In this document: piece by piece, positions 3,747 to 20,349 of the stretch
Layout: each line of letters starts with the position of its first letter
Numbering within the stretch: the first letter of the stretch is position 1
Assembly: GCA_035550055.1 (NCBI GenBank)
Contig: DASZRO010000120.1
Location: forward strand, 2,890-66,889
Direction of reading: 5' to 3'
Length of the DNA: 64,000 nucleotides
Origin: Mycobacteriales bacterium
GTDB lineage: Bacteria; Actinomycetota; Actinomycetes; JAFAQI01
Notes under the pieces: generated by a model
Told to the model about the DNA's origin: nothing
Seen by the model: the letters and a program-made list of their open reading frames with translations, nothing else
Databases searched by the model: none
Made by a program: the position numbers and the translations under genes

Positions 3747-4655
3747 TCAGCCGGGGCTGACGAGCGGCTCGTCGACGATCGGGTCGAGCGGCTCGGACTC
3801 GCCGGCCACACGTCTCGCGGTCGCGAAGTAAGAGCCGGCGAGCACGAGCGGGAAGCCGACGATCATGCCGGTCGTCACGTGCTCGCCGAGCACGGCCACG
3901 CCGAGCGCGATCGCCACTGCGGGGTTGACGTAGGTGATCACCGTCGCTCGCGTGGGACCGATCTCGGCGATCAGCCAGAAGAACACCACGAACGCCAGGG
4001 CGGTGCAGATCAGCGCCAACCCGATCACGGACCAGATGACCTCTTCGGTGAGGTGATGGGGTGGGCGAGCGATGGCGACCGGCGCATAGACGACCGCGGT
4101 GATGCCCAGTGAGGCGGCGACGACGCCGAGGCCCGGTGCGTCGCCGAGCCGGTGCGTGAGCACCAGGGGGCCGAGCGCGTAGCCGACGGACACCAGCCCG
4201 ATCTCCCCGACCGCCGCCATGTCGACCTTGCCGACCTGCAGCCCGACGAGCGAGGCCACCCCGGCGATCCCCACGAGCAGGCCGGCCCACCGTTGCGTCG
4301 TCATCTCCTCGGCGAGGCCGAGCAGCCGGGTGATCGCGATCCCGACCAGCGGCACCGCGGCCACCAGCAGCCCGGCGAGTGAGCTGGTGAGGTGCTCCTC
4401 GGCGCTGCTCAGCAGCAACCAGGGGATCGTGAGCTCGACCGCCGTGTAGACCAGCACCCACCGCCAATGGCCGCGCAGCCCGCCGAACGCGCCGCGACCT
4501 GCCGCGACTGGTACGAGCAGCAACGCCCCGATCGCGGTCCTGGCGAACACGAGGTCAGCCGGGCTGAGGTCGCGCACCGCGATCCGGATCAGCAGGTAGG
4601 GCAGGCCCCAGATCACGCACATGGCCGCGAACAGCACCGCGCCACGTCGCGTCAC
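3747..4655 (-). CDS. EamA/DMT-superfamily transporter, about 10 TM.
   Basis: 302 aa, hydrophobic, with a duplicated EamA-like arrangement. GTG start at 4653-4655. It lies 24 nt upstream of the response regulator on the same strand. Confidence 0.8.
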
Positions 4656-4678
4656 GGGGCCAACATTACGATTCGAGG

Positions 4679-5725: not shown

Positions 5726-5734
5726 CCTCGACCC

Positions 5735-6814
5735 ATGGGTCTCGAGTTCAGCGTCGAGCCGACGCAGCAGCCAACCACGCCCGAGCGACTCGCGGAGATC
5801 CTCGCCGCGCCGGGGTTCGGCAAGGTGTTCACCGACCACATGGTGACGGTCGAGTGGACGCCCGACGCGGGCTGGCACGATGCGCGGGTACGCCCGTACG
5901 GGCCGCTGCCCATGGACCCGGCAAGTCACGTCTTCCACTACGGCCAGGCGATCTTCGAGGGATTCAAGGCTTACCGGCAGCCCGACGGCGCCATCGCCAC
6001 CTTCCGGCCGGAGTTCAACGGGGAGCGGTTCAACCGCTCGGCGCAGCGCCTCGCGCTCCCGGAGCTGGCGGTTGAGGACTTCGTCGCGGCGTCTGACGTG
6101 CTCGTCGCGCAGGACGCCGACTGGGTGCCGCGAAGCGACGACGCCAGCCTTTATCTGCGGCCCTTCATGATGGCGACCGAGGTCGGTCTCGGCGTGAAGC
6201 CGTCCTCCCACGTCACCTTCCTCGTGATCGCCTCGCCCGCCGGCCCGTACTTCGCGTCCGGGGCCAAGCAGGTCACGATCTGGCTGTCCGAGGACTACAC
6301 CCGTGCCGCCCCCGGCGGGACCGGCGCGGCGAAGTGCGGCGGGAACTACGCCGCGAGTCTGGTCGCGCAGCAGGAAGGCATCGCCAACGGGTGCGAGCAG
6401 GTGCTCTTCCTCGACGCCGTCGAACGGCGTTGGGTCGAGGAGCTCGGCGGGATGAACCTGTGGTTCGTGCAGGACGACGGCACGATGCTGACCCCCGAGC
6501 TCACCGGCACGATCCTCGAGGGCGGCACCCGGGATGCGCTGAAGGTGCTCGCGGCCGAGCTCGGCCACGAGATCGAGGAGCGTCGCGTCGACATCGACGA
6601 ATGGCGCAAGGGCGTCGACGCCGGTCGCATCACCGAGGTGTTCGCCTGCGGGACCGCCGCGGTGATCGCCTCGGTCGGCACGCTGAAGTGGCACGGCGGC
6701 GAGGTGACCCTGCCGACCGAGACGCCGGTGGCGACCGCGTTGCGCAGTGCCCTCGTCGACCTCCAGTACGGCCGCAAGCCCGATCCTCACCACTGGATGC
6801 ACAAGGTCTGCTAG
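5735..6814 (+). CDS. ilvE: Branched-chain amino acid aminotransferase
   Basis: 359 aa of the class IV aminotransferase family (FTDHMV...[12 protein letters not shown]...NYAASL). It is the gene immediately after leuB. Confidence 0.92.
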
Positions 6815-6849
6815 CGCGTACCCCTGCGCTTCGTCGTACCCTGCGCGAC

Positions 6850-8010
6850 GTGGTGCGACTGCTGCTGCTCGGTTCCGGCGAGCTCGGCAAGGAGATCACG
6901 CTGGAGGCCGCGGCGCTCGGCGTCGAGGTCGTGGCGGCCGACCGGTACGACGACGCGCCCGCGATGCAGGTCACCCCGCATCGCCGCGTGGTCGACCTGC
7001 TCGACCCTGATGCCGTGCGCGCACTGGTCGAGGAGACCAAGCCGGACTTCGTCGTACCCGAGGTCGAGGCGATCGCCACCGACGCCCTGGTCCGGCTGGA
7101 AAGTGAAGGCTGGGTGGTTGTCCCGACCGCGCGTGCGGCCCGCCTGACGATGGATCGGGAGGGCATCCGGCGGCTTGCCGCCGAGACGTTGGGCCTGCCG
7201 ACGTCGCCGTACCGGTTCGCGGCGTCCGAGGCCGAGTACGTCGCGGCGGTCGAGGCGCTGGGACGTCCTTGTGTGGTCAAGCCGGTGATGAGCTCGTCCG
7301 GCAAGGGCCAGTCGGTGGTCGGGGTGGACGACGACCCGATGGCCGCGTGGCGCTACGCCCGCTCGTCCGGCCGCGTCACCGGCCAGCCGGTCATCATCGA
7401 GGGCTTCGTCGAGTTCGCCTACGAGATCACGATGCTGACCGTCCGGCATGCCGCGGGCACGACCTGTTGCCCGCCCATCGGTCATCGCCAGGAGGCGGGC
7501 GACTACCGCGAGTCGTGGCAGCCGCAGCCGATGTCGGAGCTTGCCCTGGCGCGAGCGACACAGATCGCGGTCGCGATCACCGACGGGCTCGGCGGCCGCG
7601 GCATCTTCGGCGTCGAGCTGTTCGTCACCGCCGACGACGAGGTCCTCTTCAGCGAGGTCAGTCCACGACCGCACGACACCGGGCTGGTGACGCTGCTGAG
7701 CCAGGGCACCAGCGAGTTCGGGCTGCACGTGCGCGCGATCCTCGGACTTCCGGTGCGCGCCGACGATGTCGCCAGCCGCGGAGCGTTCGCGAGCGCGGTC
7801 GTGCTCGCCGACGCCGACATCGAGGCCCCGGCGATCTCCGGGGTCGATGCCGCCCTCGCCGGTGCGCTCACCAAGGTGCGGGTGTTCGGCAAGCCGTCCG
7901 CCCACCCGGGCCGGCGCATGGCCGTCGCCGTGGCGGGTGGCAGCGACATCGACGACGCCCGGGCGCGGGCGCGTGCTGCTGCCGGGCGCATGTCGGTCGT
8001 CAAGGCTTGA
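6850..8010 (+). CDS. purT: Formate-dependent phosphoribosylglycinamide formyltransferase (GAR transformylase 2, ATP-grasp)
   Basis: It has the [12 protein letters not shown] nucleotide-binding N-terminus and an ATP-grasp body. The start is assigned to GTG 6850/6853 because the track ORF 6334..8010 upstream part overlaps ilvE in another frame. No ATG is available. Confidence 0.8.
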
Positions 8011-8071
8011 CCTTTGGCCTCGACGTGGCGAAGACTGAAGGCGTGACGCAGTTCGCCACGATTATTTCTGG

Positions 8072-8142
8072 GCGCGTCGGCTAACCACACCAGCCGACGC
8101 GCAACCCTCCGCTGCCCTTGTCGGGTCGGGGGGTTTTTTGTT
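8072..8142 (+). terminator. Perfect 11-bp inverted repeat (gcgcgtcggct / agccgacgcgc, 8072-8102) followed by a GC-rich stem and a G6T6 tract (8128-8139). It is a probable intrinsic terminator of purT and sits 30 nt before the cimA/leuA-like start, so it may act as an attenuator.
   Basis: The inverted repeat and ggggggttttttg were read directly. There is no Leu-rich leader peptide. Confidence 0.4.
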
Positions 8143-8172
8143 GGACCAACGCTTCCTCGAAGGGACGAGCCG

Positions 8173-9753
8173 GTGACACTCACCGACCTGCACGTCTACG
8201 ACACCACGCTTCGCGACGGGTCGCAGCGCGAGAGCCTGTCGCTGTCCGTGGACGACAAGCTCGCGGTGGCCGCGCACCTGGACGCGCTCGGCGTCGGCTA
8301 CATCGAGGGCGGCTGGCCCGGCGCCAACCCCAAGGACGAGGCGTTCTTCCGGCGCGCCGCGGCCGGCGAGCTCGTGCTGCGCAACGCGACGCTCGCGGCG
8401 TTCGGTGCCACCCGCAAGACGGGTCTGGTCGCGGCGGACGACCCGCAGGTCCGTGCGCTGGTCGACGCGCAGACGCCGGTCGTGACGCTCGTCGCGAAGT
8501 CCCACACCGGTCACGTCGAGCGGGCGCTTCGCACGACGCTCGCGGAGAACCTCGAGATGATCCGCGACACGGTCACCTTCCTGCGCGGTGAGGGCCGCCG
8601 GGTGTTTCTCGACGCCGAGCACTTCTTCGACGGCTACCACCTCGACCGCGACTACGCCCTCGAGGTGCTCGCGACGGCGGCGGAGTCCGGCGCGGAGGTC
8701 GTCGCGCTGTGCGACACCAACGGCGGCATGTTGCCGACCCGGCTCGCCGAGGTCGTGAACGAGGTGGTCGGCTGGCTCGGCCACCCGCAGACGCGCGTCG
8801 GGATTCACGCGCACGACGACACCTCATGTGCGGTGGCCAACTCGCTGGCCGCCGTACAAGCCGGTGCCACCCATGTGCAGGGAACCGCAAACGGGTACGG
8901 CGAGCGCGCGGGCAACGCCGACCTGTTCTCCATCGTCGCCGGCCTCGAGCTCAAGCTCGACCTGCCGGTCCTGCCCGAAGGGGCGATCACCGAGCTGGTC
9001 CGGGTCAGCCACGCAATCGCGGAGCTTGCCAACATCGCGCCTGATGACCACCAACCGTGGGTTGGCGCGAGTGCATTCGCTCACAAGGCGGGTCTGCACG
9101 CGTCGGCGCTCAAGGTTGACCCGGACCTCTACCAGCACATCGACCCGGCCGCCGTCGGCAACGACATGCGGATCCTCGTGTCCGAGCTGGCCGGTCGCGC
9201 GAGCGTCGAGCTCAAGGCCCGCGAGCTCGACATCGAGGTCGATCGCGAGGTGGTCGGCAGGGTGATCGAGCGGGTGAAGTCGATGGAGGCCGCGGGGTAC
9301 TCCTTCGAAGCGGCGGAGGCGTCCTTCGAGCTGATGCTGCGCGAAGAGGTCGACGGCGCCCGATCGCGTCCGTTCAAGCTTGAGTCGTATCGGGTGATCA
9401 GCGACGGGCGAGGCGAGGGCAACGAGTCCTCCGAGGCGACCGTGAAGCTGCACGTCGGCGAGGAGCGGGTCGTGGCGGTCGGCGAGGGCAACGGCCCGGT
9501 CAACGCCCTGGACATGGCGCTGCGCAAGGCGTTGGAGCGCTTCTACCCGCAGCTGGGCAAGCTCGAGCTGGTCGACTACAAGGTGCGGATCCTCGAAGGT
9601 GCGCACGGCACAGGCGCGGTCACCCGGGTGCTCGTGCGCACCTCGGACGGGGAGCGCTCCTGGGACACGGTCGGCGTCGACGAGAACGTGATCGCGGCGT
9701 CGTGGCAGGCCCTCGACGACGCGTACGCGTTCGGCCTGCTCGACAAGGGGTGA
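8173..9753 (+). CDS. cimA: Citramalate synthase / 2-isopropylmalate synthase family enzyme (LeuA-like, CimA type)
   Basis: 526 aa with HVYDTTLRDGSQ...GVGYIEGGWPGANPKD. It has a DRE-TIM barrel and a LeuA-dimer-type C-terminus. I cannot separate CimA from the short LeuA form without an HMM. Confidence 0.85.
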   Translation: MTLTDLHVYDTTLRDGSQRESLSLSVDDKLAVAAHLDALGVGYIEGGWPGANPKDEAFFRRAAAGELVLRNATLAAFGATRKTGLVAADDPQVRALVDAQTPVVTLVAKSHTGHVERALRTTLAENLEMIRDTVTFLRGEGRRVFLDAEHFFDGYHLDRDYALEVLATAAESGAEVVALCDTNGGMLPTRLAEVVNEVVGWLGHPQTRVGIHAHDDTSCAVANSLAAVQAGATHVQGTANGYGERAGNADLFSIVAGLELKLDLPVLPEGAITELVRVSHAIAELANIAPDDHQPWVGASAFAHKAGLHASALKVDPDLYQHIDPAAVGNDMRILVSELAGRASVELKARELDIEVDREVVGRVIERVKSMEAAGYSFEAAEASFELMLREEVDGARSRPFKLESYRVISDGRGEGNESSEATVKLHVGEERVVAVGEGNGPVNALDMALRKALERFYPQLGKLELVDYKVRILEGAHGTGAVTRVLVRTSDGERSWDTVGVDENVIAASWQALDDAYAFGLLDKG

Positions 9754-9769
9754 CGAGCGGCGTGCGGGC

Positions 9770-10396
9770 TCAGTACCGCACGGCGCCGAGTCGCGGACCG
9801 CGCTGCCAGGTCAGGCCGCCGTCACTCGACACGTAGCGCCGGGTCGGGAACGTTCCCGACCGATCCGGATCGCCGAGCGCCCGCACGGTCAGTTCGCCGT
9901 TGCTGACCGCGGCGCTCTGCACGCCGGCCGGGAAGTCGGATGCGAACCACTTGGCGCCGCGGTCGGTCGTCGTCTTCACGAAGTTGCCGCCCTGGCCCCA
10001 GGCCATCAGCGTGTGGTCGCCGAGTGCGGCCAGGCGGCTGGTGACGTCCGGCGCGTCGGCGGCTGGTCGGTAGAACATCGGGCCGTCGATGCGCCAGTGC
10101 GTGCCGGCGTCGGTCGACAGCGCGGGATAGACCGCGCCCGCGGTCGCCGGACCTTCGGCGAGGCCGGCTCGCACCTGCCCGCCGAGGCTGACCCGCTGCG
10201 AGACGGCGGTCGCGGCGATCGGACTGCCGCGGTGGAGACCGCCTCCCGCGTTGGCGAGCTTCACGTTGATGCGCGTTGCGTGGATCGTCGACGGGAACGC
10301 GTTCGAGCCGCTTGCCGCGGCGGGAATCGCGCCGAGCAGTGTGGTCAGGGCGGCGCAGGGAAGGAGCAGGTGGCGGGACGTCTTGCGTGTGGCCAT
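9770..10396 (-). CDS. Small secreted protein with three BNR/Asp-box repeats (S-x-D-x-G-x-T-W)
   Basis: 208 aa with a signal peptide (MATRKTSRHLLLPCAALTTLLGAIPAAASG). Asp-boxes are LSTDAGTHW, TTTDRGAKW and VSSDGGLTW. The AAGGAGG RBS lies 5-6 nt before the ATG at 10394-10396. Confidence 0.7.
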   Translation of the reverse strand: MATRKTSRHLLLPCAALTTLLGAIPAAASGSNAFPSTIHATRINVKLANAGGGLHRGSPIAATAVSQRVSLGGQVRAGLAEGPATAGAVYPALSTDAGTHWRIDGPMFYRPAADAPDVTSRLAALGDHTLMAWGQGGNFVKTTTDRGAKWFASDFPAGVQSAAVSNGELTVRALGDPDRSGTFPTRRYVSSDGGLTWQRGPRLGAVRY

Positions 10397-10479
10397 GGTG
10401 GCCTCCTTTGTCGCCCATGAGACGCGGTGATGATCATCTCGGTTTACCTGCTCCCGCGGCGCGCTCGTAGGGTGGGCGG

Positions 10480-11412
10480 GTGAGTGAGATGCGGTTTCGC
10501 CGGCTCGGCCGCTCCGGGTTGACCGTCTCGGTCGTCGGGATCGGCTGCAACAACTTCGGACGCCGAATCGACCTCGCTGCCACTCGCGAGGTGGTGCACG
10601 CCGCTCTCGATGCGGGTGTCACGTTGTTCGACACGGCAGACATCTACGGCGAGTCCGAGGACTTCCTGGGGGAGGTGCTCGGCGCCGCGCGGGCCGACAT
10701 CGTGCTGGCCACGAAGTTCGGCATGGACATGGGTGGGAAGCTCGGCCCCGACTGGGGGGCGCGCGGCTCACGGCGCTACATCCGCAAGGCCGTCGAGTCC
10801 TCGCTGCGGCGGCTGCGTACCGACTGGATCGACCTGTATCAGATGCACGCTCCCGATCCGGCGACGCCGATCGCGGAGACGTTGGCGGCGCTCGACGAGC
10901 TGGTCGACGAGGGCAAGGTGCGCTACATCGGGTGCTCCAACTTCAGCGGCTGGCAGCTGGTCGAGGCCGAGTGGACGGCGCGGACCGCGGGCCTGGAACG
11001 CTTCGTCAGCGCGCAGAACCACTACAGCCTGATCGAGCGCGGCGTCGAGGCGGAGCTGGTTCCGGCCTGCCGCCAGTACGGGGTCGGGGTGCTGCCGTTC
11101 TACCCGCTGGCCAACGGCCTGTTGTCCGGCAAGTACCGCCGCGGCGAGCAGGCGCCGGAGGGTACGCGGCTGGCCAGCCGAGCGGACTGGCTGACCGAAG
11201 CCCGCTTCGACCAGGTCGAGGCGCTGTCGGCGTACGCCGACGAGCGCGGCATCTCGTTGCTCGACGTGGCGATCGGCGGCCTCGCAGCGCAGCCGACGGT
11301 GGCCTCCGTCATCGCGGGAGCGACCAAGCCGGAGCAGATCAGGGCCAACGTTGCGGCCGGGCAGTGGGTGCCGAGCGCCGACGATCTGACCGCGCTCAAT
11401 AAACTGCACTGA
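10480..11412 (+). CDS. Aldo/keto reductase family oxidoreductase
   Basis: 310 aa. It shows the typical AKR pattern: GxGCNNFG, DTADIYG, LATKFG..., IDLYQMHAPD, VRYIGCSNFS. Confidence 0.9.
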   Translation: MSEMRFRRLGRSGLTVSVVGIGCNNFGRRIDLAATREVVHAALDAGVTLFDTADIYGESEDFLGEVLGAARADIVLATKFGMDMGGKLGPDWGARGSRRYIRKAVESSLRRLRTDWIDLYQMHAPDPATPIAETLAALDELVDEGKVRYIGCSNFSGWQLVEAEWTARTAGLERFVSAQNHYSLIERGVEAELVPACRQYGVGVLPFYPLANGLLSGKYRRGEQAPEGTRLASRADWLTEARFDQVEALSAYADERGISLLDVAIGGLAAQPTVASVIAGATKPEQIRANVAAGQWVPSADDLTALNKLH

Positions 11413-12171
11413 GTGCAGATCGCCCGGTTCTCCCACGACGGTGCCGTCTCGTTCGGCGTGATCGAAGGCGACACGGTCGCGCAGATCAGCGCCCATCCCT
11501 TCGGCGCGATCGAGTTCACCGGCGGCCGCGCGCCGCTGTCGGCGGTGAAGCTGCTGGCGCCGGTGCTGCCGAGCAAGGTCGTCGCCATCGGCAAGAACTA
11601 CGCCTCGCACGCCGCTGAGATGGGCGGCGAGGTCCCCGAGCAGCCGTTGATCTTCCTCAAGCCGTCGACCTCCGTGATCGCCGGCGGGGACGAGATCGCC
11701 TCCCCACCGTCGTCGGAGCGCGTCGACTACGAAGGCGAGCTCGCAGTCGTGGTGGGGCGGCTGTGTCGTGACGTGCCGGTCGAACGGGCGATGGACGTCG
11801 TGCTCGGCTACACCTGCGCCAACGACGTGACCGCTCGTGACCACCAGAAGACAGACGGACAGTGGTCGCGGGCCAAGGGCTACGACACGTTCTGCCCGCT
11901 CGGTCCCTGGATCGAGACCGACCTCGACCCCGCGGACCTTCGGATCACCACCCGGCTCAACGGTGAGGTCAAGCAAGACGCGCGCACCTCGATGATCGTG
12001 CACAAGATCCCGCAGCTGATCGCCTACATCACCGCATGCATGACCTTGCTGCCGGGCGACGTGATCCTGACCGGCACGCCGGACGGGATCGGCCCGATGC
12101 AGATCGGCGACAGCGTCGAGGTGGAGATCGAGTCGATCGGCGCGCTCACCAACCGCGTGGTCGCTCGGTGA
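11413..12171 (+). CDS. Fumarylacetoacetate hydrolase (FAH) family protein
   Basis: 252 aa with the FAH-fold motifs KVVAIGKNYASHAAEMG...YEGELAVVVG...GDVILTGTPDGIG. GTG start overlaps the stop of the AKR gene (TGAGTG). Confidence 0.88.
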   Translation: MQIARFSHDGAVSFGVIEGDTVAQISAHPFGAIEFTGGRAPLSAVKLLAPVLPSKVVAIGKNYASHAAEMGGEVPEQPLIFLKPSTSVIAGGDEIASPPSSERVDYEGELAVVVGRLCRDVPVERAMDVVLGYTCANDVTARDHQKTDGQWSRAKGYDTFCPLGPWIETDLDPADLRITTRLNGEVKQDARTSMIVHKIPQLIAYITACMTLLPGDVILTGTPDGIGPMQIGDSVEVEIESIGALTNRVVAR

Positions 12172-13604
12172 GCGTCCGGCTCCGGGTTGCGCCCTCACCG
12201 ACCGGTGACCCGCACGTCGGTACGGCGTACATGTCGCTGTTCAACCTGGCGTTCGCCCGGCAGCAGGGCGGGGCGTTCATCCTGCGGATCGAGGACACCG
12301 ACCGGGCGCGGTTCGACGCGACCAGCGAGCAGCAGGTGTACGACACGTTGCACTGGCTGGGGCTCGGTTGGGACGAGGGTCCTGACATCGGGGGGCCGTT
12401 CGCGCCGTACCGCCAGTCCGAGCGGCTGGCTTCCTACCAGCCGGTGGTCGAGACCTTGCTCGCCAGCGGTCACGCCTATCACTGCTGGTGCTCGTCGCAA
12501 CGGCTGGCCGAAATGCGGGAGGCACAGCAGAAGGCGAAGCAGCCCACGGGCTACGACCGGCTGTGTCTCGGGAAGACCCGTGACGAGCGGGCCGCGCTGC
12601 CCGGGTTCTCCGAGACGCCGGTCATACGGATGCTCGTTCCCGACGACGTGCCGCTGACCTTCACCGACCTGATCCGCGGTGAGGTGACTGCTCCGCGCCC
12701 GGACGACCAGGTCTTGATGAAGACCGACGGGTTTCCCACCTACCACCTCGCCAACGTCGTTGACGACCACGAGATGGGCATCACCCATGTCGTACGCGGC
12801 GAGGAGTGGATCGCCTCGACCCCCAAGCACGTCCTTCTCTACCAGTGGCTCGGCTGGGAGCAGCCTCGCTTCGCCCACATGCCGTTGCTGCGCAACACCG
12901 ACAAGTCGAAGATCTCCAAGCGCAAGAACCCGGCTGCGCGGCTCACCTGGTTCGTCGAGCAGGGCTTCCTGCCGGAAGCGCTGCGCAACTTCCTGGCGCT
13001 GATGGGCTACTCGCTCGGCGAGGACCGCGAGATCTTCACCTTCGAAGAGATGGTCGCGACCTTCGACTGGGGGCGGGTGAACCCGGTCGGTCCGGTGTTC
13101 GACGTCGACAAGCTGCGATGGCTGTCCGGTCACTACATGCGGGAGCTGTCCGCCGAGGACGCTGCTGCCCGCCTGGTGTCATTCATGGGTATCGACGGCG
13201 ATGCGGCCGCCATCGTGACCAAGGCGACGCCGCTGGTGCAGGAGCGGGTCTCGACGTTGTTGGAGGCGGCCGAGATGGTCGGCTTCCTGCTCGACGAACG
13301 CTTCGTCGTCGATCCGGATGCGGCGGCCAAGCAGCTGGGGCCGGAGTCCAAGCCGGCGCTCGAGGCCGCCCACTCCGCGCTCGAGGCGGTCTCGTCGTTC
13401 ACCACCGCGGAGATCGAGACCGCGCTACGTGGCGCGCTCGTCGACGGGCTCGGTCTGAAGCCCAAGAACGCCTTTGGTCCGGTGCGTGTCGCCGTCACCG
13501 GCAAGACGGTCTCGCCGCCGCTGTTCGAGTCGATCGAGCTGATCGGCAAGGACCGGACCTTGGTGCGTCTCGACGCGGCGTTGAACCAGGTGCGCCTGGG
13601 CTAG
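12168..13604 (+). CDS. gltX: Glutamyl-tRNA synthetase
   Basis: It has the class I HVGT motif (PSPTGDPHVGTAY) and KISKRK (KMSKS-like). GTG at 12168 overlaps the FAH stop (GTGA). It is followed by tRNA-Gln and tRNA-Glu. Confidence 0.93.
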   Translation: MSVRLRVAPSPTGDPHVGTAYMSLFNLAFARQQGGAFILRIEDTDRARFDATSEQQVYDTLHWLGLGWDEGPDIGGPFAPYRQSERLASYQPVVETLLASGHAYHCWCSSQRLAEMREAQQKAKQPTGYDRLCLGKTRDERAALPGFSETPVIRMLVPDDVPLTFTDLIRGEVTAPRPDDQVLMKTDGFPTYHLANVVDDHEMGITHVVRGEEWIASTPKHVLLYQWLGWEQPRFAHMPLLRNTDKSKISKRKNPAARLTWFVEQGFLPEALRNFLALMGYSLGEDREIFTFEEMVATFDWGRVNPVGPVFDVDKLRWLSGHYMRELSAEDAAARLVSFMGIDGDAAAIVTKATPLVQERVSTLLEAAEMVGFLLDERFVVDPDAAAKQLGPESKPALEAAHSALEAVSSFTTAEIETALRGALVDGLGLKPKNAFGPVRVAVTGKTVSPPLFESIELIGKDRTLVRLDAALNQVRLG

Positions 13605-13634
13605 AGTGGTCGGCGGCCCGCGAGAGCGGGCCCT

Positions 13635-13706
13635 TGGGGTATGGGGTAATTGGCAGCCCGGCTGATTCTGGTTCAGCTAGTCTAGGTTCGAGTCCTGGTA
13701 CCCCAG
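13635..13706 (+). tRNA. tRNA-Gln (anticodon CTG)
   Basis: Hand-folded cloverleaf. Acceptor TGGGGTA/TACCCCA, anticodon stem GCTGA/TCAGC, loop TTCTGGT, T-loop TTCGAGT, discriminator G. No encoded CCA. Confidence 0.88.
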
Positions 13707-13740
13707 CGATGTACCGGACTGAGCGACAATCGGTCCGCTC

Positions 13741-13813
13741 GCCCTCGTCGTCTAGTGGCCTAGGACGCCGCCCTCTCAAGGCGGTAACGGCGGTTCGAAC
13801 CCGCTCGAGGGTA
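13741..13813 (+). tRNA. tRNA-Glu (anticodon CTC)
   Basis: Acceptor GCCCTCG/CGAGGGT (G1-U72), D-arm GTCTAGTGGCCTAGGA, anticodon stem CCGCC/GGCGG, loop CTCTCAA, T-loop TTCGAAC, discriminator A. Confidence 0.88.
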
Positions 13814-13856
13814 CGTTTACCAAGTTGAGAGGCCCGGCCTTCCGGTCGGGCCCCCA

Positions 13857-14408
13857 TCATTTTGAAAGTAGATCTGGGGCGTACCGGCGAAGCAGCTCGA
13901 CCGCGAACGCGATCTTGTCTGCAACCCGCTGTCCACGGGGTTGCCACCGGCTCCACAGCTCGAGATTCTCCGGACGATTGTCGAGGCGGTCGCCCGAGCG
14001 GTGGTGGACGCTCTCGTCAGGCCACAGTGGCCTATTGAGAAGTTGGGCCATCACGAACCGATGTTCGAGGGCTTGGCTGTCGCCACCAGTCAGATAGCGC
14101 ATCTCGGGGGGAACATTGACGACGTAGTACCCATGGCTGATGTGGCGGTCGCCGGCGGGCGGGCGGATGGGCTGCTCCGCGCGCACGTCGCCGCCCGCCA
14201 TCTGGCGACGGTAGTGCGGAGCGCACAGTCCGCGGGCGTAGATCGTTCGCTCACAGGTGCCGATCTTGCAGGTGCCTTGTGTCTTCCGCCCCAGCGGACG
14301 CTCGGCTTGAACATGTCCGAGCCGTTTCCACCGCTGGTAGTGGCCGTGGCACCAGCCGCGTTCTTTCGCGTCACGTTCGCAGCCATCGACGGAGCACTTC
14401 TTGATCAT
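13857..14408 (-). CDS. HNH endonuclease with two N-terminal zinc-ribbon repeats (C-x2-C...C-x-H-x-H-Y-x-R)
   Basis: 183 aa. It has CSVDGCERDAKERGWCHGHYQRWKR and CKIGTCERTIYARGLCAPHYRRQ repeats. The HNH core is HISHGYY...EHRFVMAQ...HHRSGDRLDNRPENLELW. It lies 43 nt from the tRNA-Glu 3' end. Confidence 0.85.
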   Translation of the reverse strand: MIKKCSVDGCERDAKERGWCHGHYQRWKRLGHVQAERPLGRKTQGTCKIGTCERTIYARGLCAPHYRRQMAGGDVRAEQPIRPPAGDRHISHGYYVVNVPPEMRYLTGGDSQALEHRFVMAQLLNRPLWPDESVHHRSGDRLDNRPENLELWSRWQPRGQRVADKIAFAVELLRRYAPDLLSK

Positions 14409-14563
14409 CTCTCGATCGTCCCCACCGGCCCTGACAGGACTTGCCTTACTGGCGTCGAGCCTGTGGACGGGTGGACGCCTAGGTGAAGTGGTGACGAGTC
14501 ATGTGGGTGCGCCCGCCTTGCGGCGTTCACCCGCATTGCCGGCTCGCGCAATCGGCCGTTGCG

Positions 14564-14621
14564 CGAGACGGAACGCTACTCAGCCGCCGACCGACTCGCT
14601 GAGCTCTCGGGCGGCGTCGAC
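14564..14621. repeat. Left copy of a 58-bp direct repeat (56/58 identical to 16093-16150). It lies within a cluster of degenerate TTGCGGCGTTCAC-containing repeats (14515-14668).
   Basis: cgagacggaacGctactcagccgccgaccgactcgctgagctctcgggcggcgTcgac at 14564-14621, against cgagacggaacCctactcagccgccgaccgactcgctgagctctcgggcggcgGcgac at 16093-16150. Confidence 0.85.
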
Positions 14622-16093
14622 TTGCGGCGTTCACGTGCGTTCCCGATTCGCACGATCGCTCGGTTGACCTTCGGCAACCGCCGGGCCGCCTGCAGCGTGA
14701 ACCGATCGAGGATCGTCGCTTCAGTTCGTTGAATCGGCACCGTTCCGTCCTGGTCGGCTGCGACGTCCAACCGGAACAGCTCCCACGCTCCCGGGACCCC
14801 CTTGAGCGCGTGGCTGCCGCAGGGGGAGAAGCGCAGGCCCGACCCCGCCACGAGATCCCGGACGGTCTGCGTCACCAGGATCTCGCCGGCTCCTGCCTTG
14901 CTGGACACCCTCGCGCCGATGTGGACCGTCATGCCGTGGAAGTCGATACCGCTGCGCTCGATCTCCCCCGCGTGGGACCCCGCGCGCACGTCCAACCCAA
15001 GCTCGCTGGCGGAGTCTCGAATCCTGCATGCGGCTCGCAGTGCCTGGACCGGGCCATCGAAGACGCTGAAGGTTCCATCTCCGATGACGTTGACCAGCTC
15101 GCCGCACTCAGCCTCGACGTGCAGCCGGACGAGTCGCTCGTGCGCCGCGCGAAGCTCGCCGTACCTTTTGTCTCCCAGCTCAGCGAGCAGGTCCGTCGAG
15201 GACACGACATCTGTGAACAACACGGTGCGGAGCAGCCGGTTTGCATCAGTCGGCATGACCGATCCGGTTGTCGCCTCCATGATCTCGTCGATCATCGGGG
15301 CGTAGGACTCGCCGAATGAAGCGCCGGGCAGCGTCGGCGCCATGACGTGGAGTGTCGCGTTGGGGATGAGGTCGACGAAGTGTCGGGTCACGGCGATCGG
15401 GATCGGGCTTGACGGTTTGCGTAGCACGCGAGTGGGGACCTGCACCGCGCGGCAGATCTCGGTGAGGTCCGTGTGCATCAGCCAGTCCCAATACGCCATG
15501 GCCTTGGCCGGGCTCGCTGAGCACCTCTCGTTGAGGGCGAACAGCCGTCGGTTGTATGGCGTCGCCAGCACGTAGTCCCACATGTCGACGGTCGCCCCGG
15601 TTCCCCAGCGATCGAAAGCCTCTCGATACCCCAACTCGAACGCCGCCATTTCGTCGGCGGTCCACCCGACAGGCCGCGCTGCGCTCGCGAGACCTTGCGC
15701 GAATGGGTTGATGAGGACGAGTTCCTTGACGCGGGATGGCTCGCGTGCGGCCACCATTGCGGCCGCGCCGCACAGCCCGAACATCGAGGCGATCACGACG
15801 CGTTCCATCCCCACCGCGTCCATCACGGCCAGCAGGTCCGACGCCTGCTGCTCGAGTGTCGGGATGTATGCCGTCGTTTCGGACAGTCCGATCCCTCGCA
15901 TCTGAAGCATCGCGAGCCTGATGTACGGCGCTGCGCCCTCGAGCGCCTCGTGCAGATGCGGATCGGACCAGATCAGGTCGAGGTGGCTGTTCACCTCCAT
16001 GAACAGCAGAACGTCGGCTGGGCCATCGCCGATCACCTGGAAGGCGAGCGACGTCCCGTCTCGATCGAGGTAGCTCGTCTCCGGGGAGACCAC
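14576..16093 (-). CDS. Alpha/beta-hydrolase fused to a class III adenylate/guanylate cyclase (CHD) domain (LipJ/Rv1900c-like)
   Basis: 505 aa. The N-terminal alpha/beta hydrolase shows LLFMEVNSHLD...RVVIASMFG. The C-terminal CHD shows LRTVLFTDVVSSTDL...VIGDGTFSVFD...GSHAGEIER...GMTVHIGARV. GTG start at 16091-16093. The last 14 codons lie inside the left direct repeat. Confidence 0.88.
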   Translation of the reverse strand: MVSPETSYLDRDGTSLAFQVIGDGPADVLLFMEVNSHLDLIWSDPHLHEALEGAAPYIRLAMLQMRGIGLSETTAYIPTLEQQASDLLAVMDAVGMERVVIASMFGLCGAAAMVAAREPSRVKELVLINPFAQGLASAARPVGWTADEMAAFELGYREAFDRWGTGATVDMWDYVLATPYNRRLFALNERCSASPAKAMAYWDWLMHTDLTEICRAVQVPTRVLRKPSSPIPIAVTRHFVDLIPNATLHVMAPTLPGASFGESYAPMIDEIMEATTGSVMPTDANRLLRTVLFTDVVSSTDLLAELGDKRYGELRAAHERLVRLHVEAECGELVNVIGDGTFSVFDGPVQALRAACRIRDSASELGLDVRAGSHAGEIERSGIDFHGMTVHIGARVSSKAGAGEILVTQTVRDLVAGSGLRFSPCGSHALKGVPGAWELFRLDVAADQDGTVPIQRTEATILDRFTLQAARRLPKVNRAIVRIGNARERRKSTPPESSASRSAAE

Positions 16094-16150
16094 GAGACGG
16101 AACCCTACTCAGCCGCCGACCGACTCGCTGAGCTCTCGGGCGGCGGCGAC
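16093..16150. repeat. Right copy of the 58-bp direct repeat. It comprises the last 13 codons plus the stop of the IclR regulator gene and 16 nt downstream, and it abuts the cyclase start codon.
   Basis: See the left copy. Weaker similarity (about 60%) continues to about 16205 versus 14622-14668. Confidence 0.85.
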
Positions 16151-16816
16151 GACCGCTGCGGCGTGGAGCCTTCCCGGCGTTCGGGTCAGCCGGTCGATCG
16201 GTCCTGACACCGAGACGGCCGCGACGACTCTGCCGTCGCCGTCGAAAACGGGTGCGGACACCGAGGCCACGCCCGCCTCGCGTTCACCGACGCTTGCCGC
16301 CCAGCCTCGCCGGCGCACCGCGGCGAGCGTGGCGGGGGAGAACCGGGCGCCTTCTGGCGGAGCCTCACCCGCGGTCGACCACGCCAGCAGAACCTGGGCC
16401 GCCGAGCCCGCGGACATCGGGAGATCCGCCCCCACCGGAACGGTGTCGCGCAACCCGCTGGACCGTTCGGCCGCCGCGACACAACGGCGTACGTCGCCGA
16501 CCCGCCGATACAGCTGCGCACTTTCCTGTGTTCGCGCGGAAAGCCGTTCCAGTACGTCGCCGGCAGCGCGCAGCAACGGATCAGGCCGGCCGTTCGCGGC
16601 GAGGTCGAGCAGCGCCGGCCCCAGCGTGAAGCGCCCATCGGCATCGCGCTCGACGAGCCCGTGCACCTCGAGGGCGACCGCGAGGCGGTACGTGGTGGCC
16701 CGCGACAGTCCGGCCCGCTCGACCAGCTCGGCCAAAGAGGCCGGCCCGGGCCGCAGACACTCGAGGACGTGAACCGACTTGTCGAGCACCCCTACGCCGC
16801 TGCTACGCTGTGCCAT
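16109..16816 (-). CDS. ndgR: IclR-family transcriptional regulator, divergent from leuCD (NdgR/LtbR/AreB ortholog by synteny)
   Basis: 235 aa with an HTH (GPASLAELVERAGLSRATTYRLAVALE) and an IclR effector domain. ATG at 16814-16816. The track ORF 16109..18211 is a spurious 5' extension antisense to leuC. Confidence 0.88.
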   Translation of the reverse strand: MAQRSSGVGVLDKSVHVLECLRPGPASLAELVERAGLSRATTYRLAVALEVHGLVERDADGRFTLGPALLDLAANGRPDPLLRAAGDVLERLSARTQESAQLYRRVGDVRRCVAAAERSSGLRDTVPVGADLPMSAGSAAQVLLAWSTAGEAPPEGARFSPATLAAVRRRGWAASVGEREAGVASVSAPVFDGDGRVVAAVSVSGPIDRLTRTPGRLHAAAVVAAARELSESVGG

Positions 16817-16834
16817 ATAGCAATACTGCTGTAT
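16815..16834. promoter_or_regulatory. AT-rich pseudo-palindrome ATATAGCAATACTGCTGTAT (AGCA-n4-TGCT core) in the 48-bp ndgR-leuC divergent region. It is a probable IclR operator.
   Basis: Read directly. 16/20 positions are self-complementary. It is the only AT-rich tract in this region. Confidence 0.35.
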
Positions 16835-16864
16835 CAAGATATGAGACGCAACTAAGGAGCGCCC

Positions 16865-18235
16865 ATGGCTCGCACAATGGCCGAGAAGGTGTGGGACAAC
16901 CACGTCGTCCGCCGCACCGAAGGCGAGCCGGACCTGCTCTACATCGACCTCCACCTCGTGCACGAGGTCACCAGCCCGCAGGCCTTCGACGGGCTGCGGG
17001 CGTCGGGACGTCAGGTCCGTCGTCCCGACCTCACGATCGCCACCGAGGACCACAACGTGCCGACCACGTCCGGCCCGATCGTCGACCCGGTCAGCCTCGC
17101 GCAGGTCGAGGCGCTGCGGCGCAACTGCGAGGAGTTCGGCATCCGGTTGCATCCGATGGGTGACGCCGGCCAGGGGATCGTGCACGTCATCGGTCCGCAG
17201 CTCGGTCTGACCCAGCCTGGGATGACCGTGGTCTGCGGAGACAGCCACACCAGCACCCACGGAGCGTTCGGCGCGCTGGCGTTCGGCATCGGCACGAGCG
17301 AGGTCGAGCACGTCCTCGCCACGCAGACGCTGCCGCTGCAACGGCCCAAGACGATGGCGGTCGAGGTGGAAGGCGCACTCCCGCCAGGGGTGAGCGCCAA
17401 GGACCTGGTCCTCGGCATCATCACCCAGATCACCACTGGCGGCGGCCAGGGCCACGTCATCGAGTTCCGGGGCGAGGCGGTTCGCGACCTGTCGATGGAA
17501 GGCCGGATGACGGTCTGCAACATGTCGATCGAGGCCGGCGCCCGCGCGGGCATGATCGCGCCGGACGACACCACGTTCGCCTACCTGAAGGGTCGGCCCA
17601 ACGCACCAACGGGCGCGGACTGGGACGCGGCGGTTGCTGCCTGGCGTGAGCTGGCGACCGACGAGGGAGCCGTCTTCGACAAGGTCGTGAAAGTCGACGC
17701 GACCAAGCTCTCGCCGTGGGTCACCTGGGGAACCAACCCGGGCCAGGGCGCCGCGTTGTCCTCCGACATCCCGCAGCCCCGTGACGCCGCCGACGAGCGT
17801 GCGCTCGAATACATGGGCCTGACCGCCGGTACGCCGCTGCGCGAGGTGAAGGTCGACACGGTGTTCGTCGGCTCCTGCACCAACGGGCGGCTCGAGGACT
17901 TGCGCGCGGTCGCCGAGGTGCTGCGCGGCCGCAAGGTCGCCGACGGCGTACGGATGCTTGTCGTTCCCGGGTCGGTCGTGGTCAAGGACGCCGCCGAGTC
18001 CGAAGGTCTGCACGAGATCTTCGCGGCTGCCGGCGCCGAATGGCGCGGCGCCGGGTGCTCGATGTGTCTCGCCATGAACCCCGACAAGCTCGCCCCCGGC
18101 GAGCGAAGCGCGTCCACGTCCAACCGCAACTTCGAGGGCCGCCAAGGCCCCGGCGGCCGGACCCATCTGGTGTCGCCGGCGGTGGCTGCCGCGACGGCGG
18201 TTGCCGGCCACCTGGCTGCCCCGGCCGACCTGTAG
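16865..18235 (+). CDS. leuC: 3-isopropylmalate dehydratase large subunit
   Basis: 456 aa of the aconitase family ([11 protein letters not shown]...[20 protein letters not shown]...). The AAGGAG RBS is 6 nt before the ATG. Confidence 0.95.
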
Positions 18236-18252
18236 AGCGAAGGGACCTCGCC

Positions 18253-18840
18253 ATGGAGAAGTTCACGACCCACACCGGTCGCGCAGTGCCGCTGCGTCGT
18301 AGCAACGTCGACACCGACCAGATCATCCCGGCCGAGTACCTCAAGCGTGTGACGCGCACCGGCTTCGAGGACGGATTGTTCGGTGCGTGGCGTCAGGACC
18401 CGTCGTTCGTGCTGAACGACGACCGGTACGACGGCGCGACGATCCTCGTCGCGGGACCGGACTTCGGGACCGGTTCCTCGCGCGAGCACGCGGTCTGGGC
18501 GCTGCAGGACTACGGCTTCCGCGCGGTGGTCTCCTCGCGGTTCGCCGACATCTTCCGGGGCAACTCGTTCAAAGGCGGACTGCTCACCGTCCAGCTCCCC
18601 GAAGACGTCGTCGGGGCCTTGCAGGACCTCGTGGAGGCCGACCCGTCGACTCCGGTCACGGTCGATCTCGAGGCTCGCGAGGTGCGGGCGGGCGCGATCT
18701 CGGCCGGCTTCGAGATCGACGACTACACCCGCTGGCGGCTGATGGAAGGGCTCGACGACATCGGCCTCACCCTGCGCCACACCGCGGACATCGACGCCTT
18801 CGAGGCGAAGCGTCCGTCGTGGCTGCCGGTCACCGCCTGA
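18253..18840 (+). CDS. leuD: 3-isopropylmalate dehydratase small subunit
   Basis: 195 aa with [14 protein letters not shown] and [21 protein letters not shown]. Confidence 0.95.
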
Positions 18841-19007
18841 CGTGTCGAAGTAACCCACACGGCCTAGTCGGGCCGACGTCGGGCACGAATGCGCTGCGAC
18901 ACAACAAAAAATGCGGGTCGCGATCGTTGTGCGCGTCGCGTTTAAGGCCTAGCGTCCGCGTCAGGTCGAGGGCAGTCAGTCCTCGACGTCGACTGCGGAG
19001 GATGCAC

Positions 19008-19481
19008 GTGAACAGGGCCGAACTGATCGACGCCATTCGCGACCGGCTGGGCGCGGACAAGCGGACGGCCGAGGACGCGGTAGACGCGGTGCTCGACACC
19101 ATCCAGCGAGCGGTCGCCGCGGGTGAGCGAGTGGCGATCACCGGCTTCGGGGTGTTCGAGAAGGTCGAGCGCGCTGCTCGTACCGGCCGCAACCCGCGCA
19201 CCGGCGCAACGGTGAAGGTCAAGGCGACCGCGGTGCCGAAGTTCCGGCCCGGCACCCAGTTCAAGGGCGTCGTCAGCGGCGCGGTGAAGCTCGGCAAGGT
19301 GACCGACGCCGCGACCAAGGCGGCGGCCAAGTCCACCGCCTCCACCGCGCGCAGCGCCGCGAAGACGGCTTCCGCCGGTCCCCGCAAGGCCGCGGCAGCG
19401 GCGAAGACCGCCGCCAAGAAGGCCGCGAAGGCGCCGGCGAAGAAGGCCCCCGCCAAGAAGGCCCCCGCCAAGAAGCGCTAG
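19008..19481 (+). CDS. hupB: HU-family nucleoid protein with a Lys/Ala-rich histone-like C-terminal tail (actinobacterial HupB/HupS/Hlp type)
   Basis: The N-terminal HU fold is NRAELIDAI...[21 protein letters not shown]. The C-terminus is [23 protein letters not shown], with 15-nt repeats at the DNA level. GTG at 19008 lies 6 nt after GGAGG. A 7-bp hairpin sits at 18965-18987 in the 5'UTR. Confidence 0.9.
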
Positions 19482-19501
19482 CCGCCAGCCCGCTCGAGGA
19501 G

Positions 19502-19714
19502 TCAGGCCGGGTCGGGGAAGGTCGCGATCGTCAGCGACCTGACCCGGCCCGCCTCGTCGAGATCGAGTCGCACTCGCTGCCCGGTGCGCAGCAGCCGCAG
19601 CCCCGACCGGTCGAACGCGCCCGCGTCGAACTCCACGGCGGCGCCGGAGTCGAGCAGCACGTCCCCGCTTCGTGTCGCCTCGTCGAAGCGGCGTACCGTC
19701 GCCTGCACCGTCAT
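19502..19714 (-). CDS. Small (70 aa) protein with a degenerate cold-shock/OB-like sequence pattern
   Basis: MTVQATVRRFDEATRSGDVLLDSGAAVEFDAGAFDRSGLRLLRTGQRVRLDLDEAGRVRSLTIATFPDPA. Its ATG overlaps the cofC stop (ATGA at 19711-19714). Confidence 0.45.
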   Translation of the reverse strand: MTVQATVRRFDEATRSGDVLLDSGAAVEFDAGAFDRSGLRLLRTGQRVRLDLDEAGRVRSLTIATFPDPA

Positions 19715-20349
19715 TCGTTCCACACCGCCGGAAGCGACCGCAGCGCCGCGGCGCTGCTCGCCCCGATGCCGAGGCGGACGGCTGCCCGCAGGTCCTCGAC
19801 GGTGTCGACGTCGCGACGAAGTGACTCCGGTGCGAGCGGGGTGAGGTCGTAGGCCCCCGCGGCGACATGAGCCGCGAGAGACGAGACGCCGAACTGTGGC
19901 GTGAAGCTCGCGACCGACTCCGCACACAACAGCGTCGTACCGGTGCCTTGCTGGTCGGCGACCACGGCGCGGGCGTGGCGTTGTGCCTGTTCGAGCACGA
20001 CCGAGAGGTCCGCCGGGCGCAACGCGGGCAGATCGGAGGACAACGCCGCCACTCGCGCAGTGGCGGCACTTCGCGCGCCGTGGCTCAACGCCGCGTTGAG
20101 GCCGGCGTCGGGTACGTCGGCGACGATCGTCACGTCGAGTTCTCGCAGCGCCTCTCGTGCCCGGCCGTCATCGGTGACGACGACGACCATCGCCACCCGC
20201 TCGCAGCCGAGGGCCGCGGTGACGGTGTCGACTGCCATCGTCACGGCCAGCGTCGTGCGGGCCGCGACGTCGACCGCAAGCCGGGTCTTCGCGATCTCCA
20301 CCCGCTTGACCGGCACGATCAGCGACCAGCGGTCCGCTTGCTGGGACAT
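19711..20349 (-). CDS. cofC: 2-phospho-L-lactate guanylyltransferase (F420 biosynthesis, CofC/FbiD)
   Basis: It begins MSQQADRWSLIVPVKRVEIAKTRLA, matching the FbiD N-terminus, and has the MobA-like NTP-transferase fold. GAGG lies 9 nt before the ATG at 20347-20349. Confidence 0.8.
   Translation of the reverse strand: MSQQADRWSLIVPVKRVEIAKTRLAVDVAARTTLAVTMAVDTVTAALGCERVAMVVVVTDDGRAREALRELDVTIVADVPDAGLNAALSHGARSAATARVAALSSDLPALRPADLSVVLEQAQRHARAVVADQQGTGTTLLCAESVASFTPQFGVSSLAAHVAAGAYDLTPLAPESLRRDVDTVEDLRAAVRLGIGASSAAALRSLPAVWNE

Follow-up and report, generated by a model that had tools for sequence, protein, structure and literature searches.

Homology-facilitated illegitimate recombination was put forward as the origin of the orphaned 3' fragments in T6SS effector–immunity arrays and Rhs/CDI loci (PMC5361080), in a paper that cites de Vries & Wackernagel 2002 and Prudhomme et al. 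2002 for the mechanism. Two protein families matter for the locus described here. LipJ (Rv1900c) of Mycobacterium tuberculosis is an alpha/beta-hydrolase fused to a class III adenylyl cyclase (PDB 1YBT/1YBU; PMC2447327), and free-standing HNH homing endonuclease genes are described from phages, both of the T4 mobE type and in actinophages (PMC2790892, PMC10448857). The NdgR role of an IclR regulator of the kind found beside them here has likewise been described (PMC4340878).

The window analysed here, a stretch of 64,000 nucleotides from a Mycobacteriales bacterium, carries relatives of all three between tRNA-Glu and leuC. Along the minus strand, the IclR gene, which ends in one copy of a 58-nt repeat (H), is followed after 15 nt by a LipJ-like cyclase gene (GTG to AAG, codon 491), the second repeat copy (H'), a single G, a stub of 20 cyclase codons with a stop, an old spacer, the HNH gene and tRNA-Glu. 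The preliminary description of this DNA took some 2.3 kb of it for a single tRNA-adjacent mobile islet; its coordinates for the repeats, tRNA, HNH gene and cyclase gene all hold and the cyclase gene does prove to be inserted, but the HNH gene as cargo, the link to the tRNA and the mobility of the segment have not stood up. We lean, without great confidence, towards reading the repeats as the junction scar of illegitimate recombination, not as att sites.

Backbone and HNH endonuclease gene

The backbone includes tRNA-Gln (CTG; 13635–13707, plus strand) and tRNA-Glu (CTC; 13741–13814, plus strand), both called by ARAGORN and present as a pair in all relatives, and leuC (16865–18235, plus strand), the neighbour of the regulator gene. 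The latter (16109–16816, minus strand) encodes an IclR-family protein of 235 aa with Pfam HTH_IclR and IclR_C domains, is syntenic in all relatives and is divergent from leuCD, i.e. in the NdgR/LtbR position. A search of genome contigs with the IclR protein gave, among the matches listed, relatives at no more than 64% identity, and was of use only for the deep backbone (locus L004).

The HNH endonuclease gene (13857–14408, minus strand; 183 aa) lies 42 nt from the 3' end of tRNA-Glu. Its product combines two Cys/His ribbons, seen in the translation as two C-x4-C...C-x2-H motifs, with an HNH_3 core that scores 29.7 bits against Pfam PF13392 (cut-off 24.8) and in which the motif HHRSGDRLDNRPENLELW is intact. 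Of the PHROG families that it matches, 15/17 are annotated as HNH endonuclease, and the phage connection suggested by the preliminary description is borne out by 35–48% identity to actinophage HNH endonucleases; on these similarities the protein belongs to the actinophage family of free-standing HNH endonucleases. The gene adjoins tRNA-Glu in all nine clade-relative loci that cover the position (9/9), so that the 2.3 kb cannot be treated as one islet. It is absent from L004, in which 75 nt separate IclR from tRNA-Glu, it is missing from more distant genomes, and in some relatives it has decayed. Its allele identities are incongruent with those of the flanking genes: relative to L019 and L025 the HNH genes are 53–54% identical against 88–89% for gltX, whereas relative to L027 the values are 79% and 80%. 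Together with this presence and absence at a fixed site, the pattern points to an older resident, a putative homing-type gene beside tRNA-Glu. Since the gene sits there in every clade relative examined, it belongs to the local backbone and predates the cyclase insertion, rather than being recent cargo.

Deviant composition across 13857–16093, a further indication that the preliminary description proposed to look for, was found in part. The HNH gene is the clearest outlier (GC3 0.74 against about 0.90 for the backbone), while the cyclase gene deviates only mildly (0.83), and because the IclR gene itself stands at 0.81, composition is weak evidence.

The 58-nt direct repeats

The two repeat copies that bracket the cyclase gene are real: H' (14564–14621) and H (16093–16150), neither assigned to a strand, are each 58 nt long, in direct orientation and identical at 56/58 positions. 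An exact 41-nt core occurs twice in the window against zero occurrences expected from shuffles, and the pair is the sole dispersed repeat above about 80% identity in a repeat search of the whole 64 kb. Nor is the 58-mer a common dispersed repeat beyond these two copies, as it gave 0 matches in two metagenome DNA scans, one with a spacer query and one with an IclR-end query. A second, weaker repeat, overlooked in the preliminary description, pairs 14514–14554 with 14618–14658 at 78%.

The right copy, H, consists of the last 13 IclR codons (16112–16150), the TGA stop (16109–16111) and 16 nt, made up of a 15-nt spacer and the G with which the cyclase GTG begins. The IclR C-terminus, AAARELSESVGG, agrees with AAAREVTRSLGG and AAARELSTAAG* in relatives, and H is therefore the native gene end, as had been claimed, and H' its displaced duplicate. 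Both mismatches between the copies sit in the non-functional H', one of them an Ala-to-Asp change in the IclR frame, the other a change of AGGG to AGCG in the spacer. The boundaries of the bracketed DNA read AAG|TCGAC and CTCG|TGGTC. The two repeats would permit clean loss of the cyclase gene by homologous recombination.

The cyclase gene

The bracketed gene (14576–16093, minus strand; 505 aa) encodes a LipJ-like alpha/beta-hydrolase with a class III cyclase domain, identified by Pfam, structure and NCBIfam matches. It matches Pfam Guanylate_cyc and the LipJ/Rv1900c cyclase structure 1YBT (E=1.6e-35), and its residues 3–441 align to positions 7–448 of the 449 in the NCBIfam LipJ model NF058673. 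The score against this model is 268.6 bits and lies far below the equivalog cut-off of 800, so the protein is a homolog of LipJ and not an ortholog.

The ends of the gene are shared with the repeats. The first base of its GTG start is common to H, and its TAG stop (14576–14578) lies inside H'. Homology to the cyclase family runs from Met1 through ...RIGNARERRK491, i.e. the gene is full length from its start to 3–7 codons short of the family's usual end. At that point it runs into a duplicate of the final 39 nt of IclR with the stop and spacer, and from H', read in a frame other than that of IclR, come its last 14 codons and its TAG, the native terminal 3–7 residues having been swapped for a repeat-encoded tail.

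Since the cyclase gene is promoterless and starts 15 nt past the IclR stop, co-transcription with the NdgR/LtbR-type regulator is probable. A promoter and terminator scan, in itself uninformative, gave no terminator-like site between the two genes. Were they co-transcribed, amino-acid status would be linked to cAMP or lipid signalling in an uncultured Mycobacteriales lineage.

Relatives and a second assembly

The empty site that an insertion predicts exists in L028, L027/L026 and L025, where IclR is directly followed by the HNH gene after 63–90 nt. An HNH gene right behind IclR is the ancestral state of the clade, with lineage-specific DNA confined to about 1.6 kb: cyclase gene, repeat and stub. 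Between stub and HNH gene, 14409–14498 (minus strand) may be a remnant of the ancestral IclR–HNH spacer, as its ACTTCACC...CCACAGGCTCGAC resembles L027 and L028, although the similarity is weak. The comparison separates three layers of differing age, namely the backbone, the old HNH gene and the recent cyclase.

These empty sites could instead be independent clean deletions of a cyclase gene that was ancestral here. The stub shows that a cyclase was at the site before the present copy, and the gap is prone to recombination, but three sub-lineages would have to have arrived at short IclR–HNH spacers without stub or repeat. Moreover, the closest homolog of the cyclase among 5.8 billion proteins is only 58% identical, while relatives of IclR and HNH stand there at 80–88%, some of them at 86–88%. 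We regard ancestral presence as very unlikely.

The same arrangement occurs in GCA_964558155.1 (L017), which is 100% identical across 13815–16200 and differs from the window at 1 position in about 15 kb. It was considered as an independent strain on the basis of a 99.68% identity, and this was rejected since all mismatches but one lie at its contig end; it is effectively the same strain. As the source is a metagenome-assembled genome, and both assemblies represent one strain and may share reads, a chimeric assembly path through a shared k-mer has to be weighed. However, the two repeat copies can be told apart at 2 positions, each of them tied to its own flank, and no alternative partner has more than 7 nt in common with the junctions between cyclase and H' and between H' and stub, a length too short for assembler k-mers. 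The ORF, its frame and its stop are coherent, and the structure is identical in two separate assemblies. An artefact is extremely improbable.

A stub of an older cyclase gene

Directly left of H', exactly where a cyclase would be expected to start, a second cyclase has left its last 20 codons (14499–14563, minus strand), encoding QRPIARAGNAGERRKAGAPT and ending in a native TGA (14499–14501). The stub, which first showed itself through the weak 78% repeat, is in frame with the expected start, where the codon is GCG and not GTG. An HMM of the family C-terminus, built with the window sequence left out, matches it with E=0.003; it is the second-best match in the six-frame window, the next having E=0.41. 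Compared with the live cyclase end, 33/45 nt are identical, with 7/11, 9/11 and 5/11 matches at the three codon positions, so that mismatches are concentrated in third positions, and outside the conserved ERRK codons the identity in fixed register is 19/31 nt (p ~3e-4). The second cyclase diverged from the live one as a coding sequence. Another account of the stub, in which 104 nt were inserted and 14 nt of target duplicated, was rejected: significant similarity, in fixed register and with a coding pattern, extends to the 31 nt that lie beyond the 14-mer.

An intragenomic tandem duplication of IclR end and cyclase gene by unequal or illegitimate exchange, followed by deletion within the distal copy, would yield the order H–cyclase–H'–stub in the same two steps and make a foreign donor unnecessary. 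In such a duplication the cyclase 3' ends should match as well as the 58-mers do, but they differ at 12/45 positions against 2/58 (Fisher p=0.0009), in a pattern of divergence under coding constraint; if the duplication were old, gene conversion would be needed to hold the 58-mers at 97%. For these reasons we consider it rather unlikely.

Mobile elements and endonuclease-driven capture as alternative readings

The repeats had been read as the signature of a site-specific insertion or cassette. In an explicit form of that reading, the 58-mers would be attL and attR of a non-autonomous cyclase cassette whose recombinase is encoded elsewhere, the IclR end having been regenerated. Some features speak for it: precise, near-identical direct repeats surround exactly one ORF, the bracketed DNA holding nothing else, one of them restores the end of the target gene, and relatives have the empty site. 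Yet the gene table with its Pfam matches shows no integrase, transposase or recombinase over at least 3.7 kb towards leuC and 10 kb towards gltX, and there are no inverted repeats at the boundaries. The 58-mer regions fold no better than shuffles (z 0.3–0.7) and form no significant hairpin. Neither is the site re-used, as no further 58-mer occurs in the window or the two metagenome scans and a duplicated IclR end is found in none of 13 related loci, 4 of which carry other cargo. Homologs of the cyclase elsewhere stand in unrelated contexts and have no flanking repeats. A simple attL/attR model also fails to explain the stub beside the left repeat: the site before insertion would have to be IclR–H–stub, and the stub would need a separate event. 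A site-specific cassette is therefore quite unlikely.

More specific classes of element fare similarly. Integron cassettes are not indicated, as the boundaries have no GTT core and no intI lies nearby, and a reading of the repeats as attC-like sites or terminators was dropped because the RNA folding of both equals that of shuffles. An IS, transposon or MITE is not suggested by a duplication of 58 nt with neither transposase nor terminal inverted repeats. As for insertion at a tRNA 3' end, the HNH gene separates the tRNA from the insertion, and a repeat search detected no duplicate of the tRNA-Glu 3' end.

A different role for the HNH protein may be imagined, in which it would be an active chromosomal homing or nicking endonuclease whose breaks make the IclR–HNH gap a hot spot. 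Ku/LigD end-joining is typical of Mycobacteriales, and nicks staggered by 58 nt, filled in and joined by this route, could have captured a promoterless ORF while duplicating 58 nt of the target. This would amount to integrase-free capture of ORFs behind a regulator gene, and would explain why the gap holds different cargo in each relative; we nevertheless think it highly improbable.

Illegitimate recombination as the proposed origin of the repeats

Illegitimate recombination, to which we incline, would require at least two events, probably homology-anchored, through which a new cyclase gene was placed upstream of an older one, the IclR end was duplicated and the older gene was deleted. A cyclase gene, A, would first have been captured just after the IclR stop. 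A segment comprising the 3' part of IclR, the spacer and a cyclase gene B would then have been laid in, with its homology anchor in IclR, while its far end, after the AAG, would have been joined illegitimately to the IclR gene already in place, at a point 42 nt upstream of the last base of the stop (39 nt of IclR coding sequence plus the stop). The resident IclR end with cyclase A would thereby have been displaced downstream, giving the 58-nt duplication, and the redundant distal copy A could subsequently have been deleted from its start codon to codon -20. The likely mechanism would be homology-facilitated illegitimate recombination, and H' followed by a 20-codon orphan cyclase 3' end is what a displacement scar would look like. 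The IclR gene is intact after these events. IclR and the 3' end of the cyclase gene have an 8-nt motif, ACGCCGCA, in common; as the place of crossover it was rejected because it misses the actual junction by 2–6 nt.

Several points count against this recombination model. It needs at least two events, and donor and recipient would have to combine almost identical IclR ends (97%) with cyclase alleles that differ by about 27%, an awkward pairing except where the cyclase has a paralogous source or the locus is hypervariable. Copy A would have been removed with suspicious neatness, in frame and from the start codon on; microhomology at AAG|TCGAC is an overlap of only 1 nt, and both assemblies are essentially one strain. 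No intermediate genome, whether with a tandem B–H'–A or with an intact IclR–cyclase A–HNH arrangement, appeared in two metagenome scans, so the order of events is one that we infer. Neither these scans nor a protein search gave a donor allele.

The structure is one of ordinary genome evolution and no new kind of element. It offers a small, clean case of gaining and then replacing one promoterless gene without mobile-element machinery, in which an essential neighbouring regulator was left intact and the newcomer cyclase probably put under the regulator's promoter. For genome scans it is a warning as well, since direct repeats, a tRNA and an HNH gene together mimic a mobile island.

Comparison with known systems

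Integrase islands that use the 3' end of a tRNA or protein gene share with this locus direct repeats of tens of bp, one of which is the intact target end, and an empty site in relatives. Unlike them, the locus has no integrase, carries a bare 1.47-kb ORF, has a target other than a tRNA, is not re-used in relatives and bears the stub of an older gene at its junction.

Of the two enzymes, the cyclase resembles LipJ in its two-domain architecture from end to end and in the FTD and GDG metal-binding motifs, conserved in the alignment, but differs in its 14-residue foreign C-terminal tail, its genomic context and its score (268 against 800 bits). The HNH gene shares with phage HNH homing genes the HNH_3 core and a fixed intergenic position; in contrast to these it is chromosomal and vertically syntenic across a bacterial clade.

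A further likeness is with displacement in T6SS and Rhs loci. There, and in our reading here too, homology is provided on one side only, by a conserved gene upstream; a new variable gene enters behind this anchor, the former copy is shifted downstream and persists as an orphan 3' fragment behind a short piece of the anchor, and no dedicated recombinase takes part. This locus carries a signalling or lipolytic enzyme rather than a toxin–immunity pair, and a single displacement step, with the mechanism inferred from the scar, has left 20 codons of the displaced copy.

Gene content and the 58-nt repeat

After direct reading of the region, ORFs and tRNAs were called, giving the order gltX (end at 13604), tRNA-Gln (13635-13707), tRNA-Glu (13741-13814), an HNH_3 endonuclease ORF identified with Pfam (13857-14408, minus strand), a 505-aa hydrolase-cyclase ORF supported by ORF calling and Pfam (14576-16093, minus strand), an IclR-family regulator gene (16109-16816, minus strand) and leuC (16865-18235, plus strand). 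The regulator gene is divergent from leuCD, which is where NdgR/LtbR-type regulators are situated (PMC4340878). The 505-aa ORF encodes a LipJ-like protein that joins an alpha/beta-hydrolase to a class III cyclase (Pfam Guanylate_cyc match), the cyclase domain of which matches PDB 1YBT/LipJ at E=1.6e-35; it aligns with the NCBIfam LipJ model from one end to the other, scoring 268 bits against an equivalog cut-off of 800 bits. Its nearest homologs among 5.8 billion proteins, of ~495 aa, are only 57-58% identical.

The cyclase gene is flanked by a 58-nt direct repeat (14564-14621 and 16093-16150), the copies of which are identical at 56/58 positions. The right copy, H, holds the last 13 IclR codons, TGA, a 15-nt spacer and the first base of the cyclase GTG, while the left copy, H', encodes in another frame the last 14 codons and TAG of the 505-aa ORF. 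Repeat search and ORF and tRNA calls re-derived the coordinates and the 56/58 match of the preliminary description, and bear out its view of the right copy as the native IclR 3' end (13 codons, TGA and 16 nt). The 41-nt exact core of the repeat occurs twice in the window, where shuffles predict no occurrence, and a whole-window search found no other dispersed repeat above ~80% identity; as neither the window nor metagenome scans contained further copies, this is not a common dispersed repeat. Alignment places the cyclase GTG at Met1 of the family and ends the homology at ...RIGNARERRK491, 3-7 residues before the usual family end, so that almost exactly one ORF's length of unique DNA lies between the repeats. 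The IclR gene is intact. The cyclase start follows the IclR stop by 15 nt and nothing terminator-like lies in between, so the two genes are likely to be co-transcribed.

An assembly artefact would be an unlikely source of this structure, because the overlap of the junctions with any other possible partner is too short for assembler joins, and the two repeat copies can be told apart by sequence. MAGs labelled Mycobacteriales bacterium contain the exact window proteins. The locus has an identical structure in L017 (GCA_964558155.1), a second assembly evidently of the same strain by its sequence, with one mismatch to the window within 4576-19546 and all remaining mismatches at the L017 contig end. 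Past 19546 the two diverge sharply (window 19547-20160), reflecting either strain variation in a segment downstream of an HU-like gene or an artefact of the contig end. Tandem coding repeats rich in Lys, Ala and Pro (AAKKA-type) lie in the tail of the HU-like gene (19382-19478) and again within a gene at 50814-51071.

Related loci and the IclR-HNH gap

Relatives' contigs encoding the nearest IclR and HNH relatives were compared with the window by tblastn, sequence reading and tRNA calls. HNH stands directly beside tRNA-Glu in every clade locus covering that position (L019, L020, where it is frameshifted, L021, L022, L024, L025, L026, L027 and L028). In a distant actinomycete MAG (L004, 8693-8842) the IclR stop lies 75 nt from tRNA-Glu without an HNH gene, an arrangement that represents the deep state of the gltX-tRNA-IclR-leuCD backbone. 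The HNH gene has therefore long been resident throughout the clade and does not belong to a recent islet. The empty site does exist: in L028, L027/L026 and L025, IclR is followed directly by HNH across a gap of 63-90 nt. L028 is 83% (IclR) and 88% (HNH) identical to the window. The lineage-specific DNA in the window amounts to only ~1.6 kb.

Other relatives carry different cargo in this gap, which is a variable hot spot. L019 has a solute-binding protein gene, then a cyclase/beta-propeller gene downstream (gap 7797-11431); L029 has a solute-binding protein gene (1484-2272), its contig stopping before the point of the L019 cyclase/beta-propeller gene; L020 holds ~6 kb including methyltransferase, CYTH and GNAT genes (8033-14241); and L021/L022 hold a MamF-like gene and a mutator-family transposase (L021 7889-9648). 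In L019, the closest backbone relative, the gene adjoining HNH (9340-10932, minus strand, the opposite strand) encodes 530 aa. Besides a YNCE/SGL beta-propeller, this protein has an N-terminal class III cyclase-like region that shares 28% identity with residues 284-442 of the window cyclase; the gap has thus received another cyclase-domain gene, unrelated to the first.

The HNH_3 core of the HNH protein is intact (Pfam), and in searches of phage proteins it shares 35-48% identity with HNH endonucleases from phages of Gordonia, Mycobacterium, Streptomyces and Microbacterium. GC3 is ~0.90 in gltX, leuC and leuD, 0.83 in the cyclase gene, 0.81 in IclR and 0.74 in HNH, values that weakly favour a foreign origin of the cyclase and more strongly mark out HNH as deviant in composition. 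The identities of HNH are at odds with those of the flanking gltX and IclR (window, L019, L021, L024, L025, L027, L028): between the window and L019/L025 they are 88-89% for gltX, 85% for IclR and 53-54% for HNH, between the window and L027 80%, 77% and 79%, and between L019 and L025 94% for gltX and 66% for HNH. The pattern suggests that alleles are exchanged, or home, at a fixed position beside tRNA-Glu. The L020 HNH gene (13191-13726) is uncalled, and tblastn recovers it in two parts, 45% and 78% identical and in different frames, reading as a frameshifted pseudogene. Incongruence, decay in L020 and absence from L004 together are what a homing-type selfish gene swapping alleles at a fixed site should show; that such a gene lies behind the variability of the adjacent gap is speculative and very improbable.

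A remnant of a second cyclase gene

A weaker repeat (14514-14554 versus 14618-14658) pointed to a stub directly after the left 58-nt copy (14563-14499, minus strand), which reads (G)CG CAA CGG ... and translates as QRPIARAGNAGERRKAGAPT*. This is the characteristic C-terminus of the window cyclase family, with its stop at the usual distance after the RRK motif. A family C-terminus profile built with the window protein left out matches the stub at E=0.003, the second-best match in the six-frame translation of the 64 kb, the next being at E=0.41. In a fixed register, stub and live gene share 19/31 nt outside the conserved ERRK codons (p about 3e-4), and their matches by codon position (7/11, 9/11 and 5/11) have the pattern of two coding sequences diverged under selection. 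The stub is in frame with the start-codon position after the left repeat, where GCG stands instead of GTG.

Tandem duplication within the genome would yield the same topology; it predicts a near-identical stub and live copy, however, and the two differ. Mismatches number 12/45 nt between the stub and the live 3' end and 2/58 between the repeat copies (Fisher p=0.0009), so the stub comes from a different, diverged cyclase gene, and the duplication of the IclR end is recent.

Origin of the locus

Nothing in the sequence points to site-specific recombination, given the lack of a recombinase near the locus (Pfam gene table, at least 3.7 kb on the leuC side and 10 kb on the gltX side), of inverted repeats at the boundaries or a duplicated tRNA-Glu end (repeat search), of a significant hairpin in the 58-mer (fold of the repeat regions), of additional 58-mers in the window or in metagenome scans, and of re-use of the site, no duplicated IclR end being present in the relatives with other cargo (L019, L029, L020, L021, L022). 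Cyclase homologs in other genomes lie in unrelated neighbourhoods without flanking repeats. No role of the 58-mers as att sites is demonstrated. From the mobile-islet reading, insertion of the cyclase with preservation of the IclR end survives, and the tRNA-linked, HNH-bearing islet does not.

The locus, ordered IclR-H-cyclase B (the live gene), H'-stub (A)-HNH, is best filed as a scar left by recombination, through gene capture and displacement at a hot spot. Homology within IclR would have anchored an incoming segment made up of the IclR 3' part, spacer and cyclase B, and the other end of this segment would then have been joined illegitimately to the resident IclR gene, at a point 39 nt upstream of the stop codon. 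The resident IclR end and cyclase A would have been pushed downstream, and the redundant distal cyclase A later deleted. Intermediates of this displacement were not found, so the order of events, the donor and the neat in-frame loss of copy A stay inferred and in part unexplained. Through the flanking repeats the cyclase could be lost cleanly. The process is of a known kind and the locus a new instance of it: the same logic, homology-facilitated illegitimate recombination, was put forward to account for orphaned 3' modules of T6SS and Rhs loci (PMC5361080).
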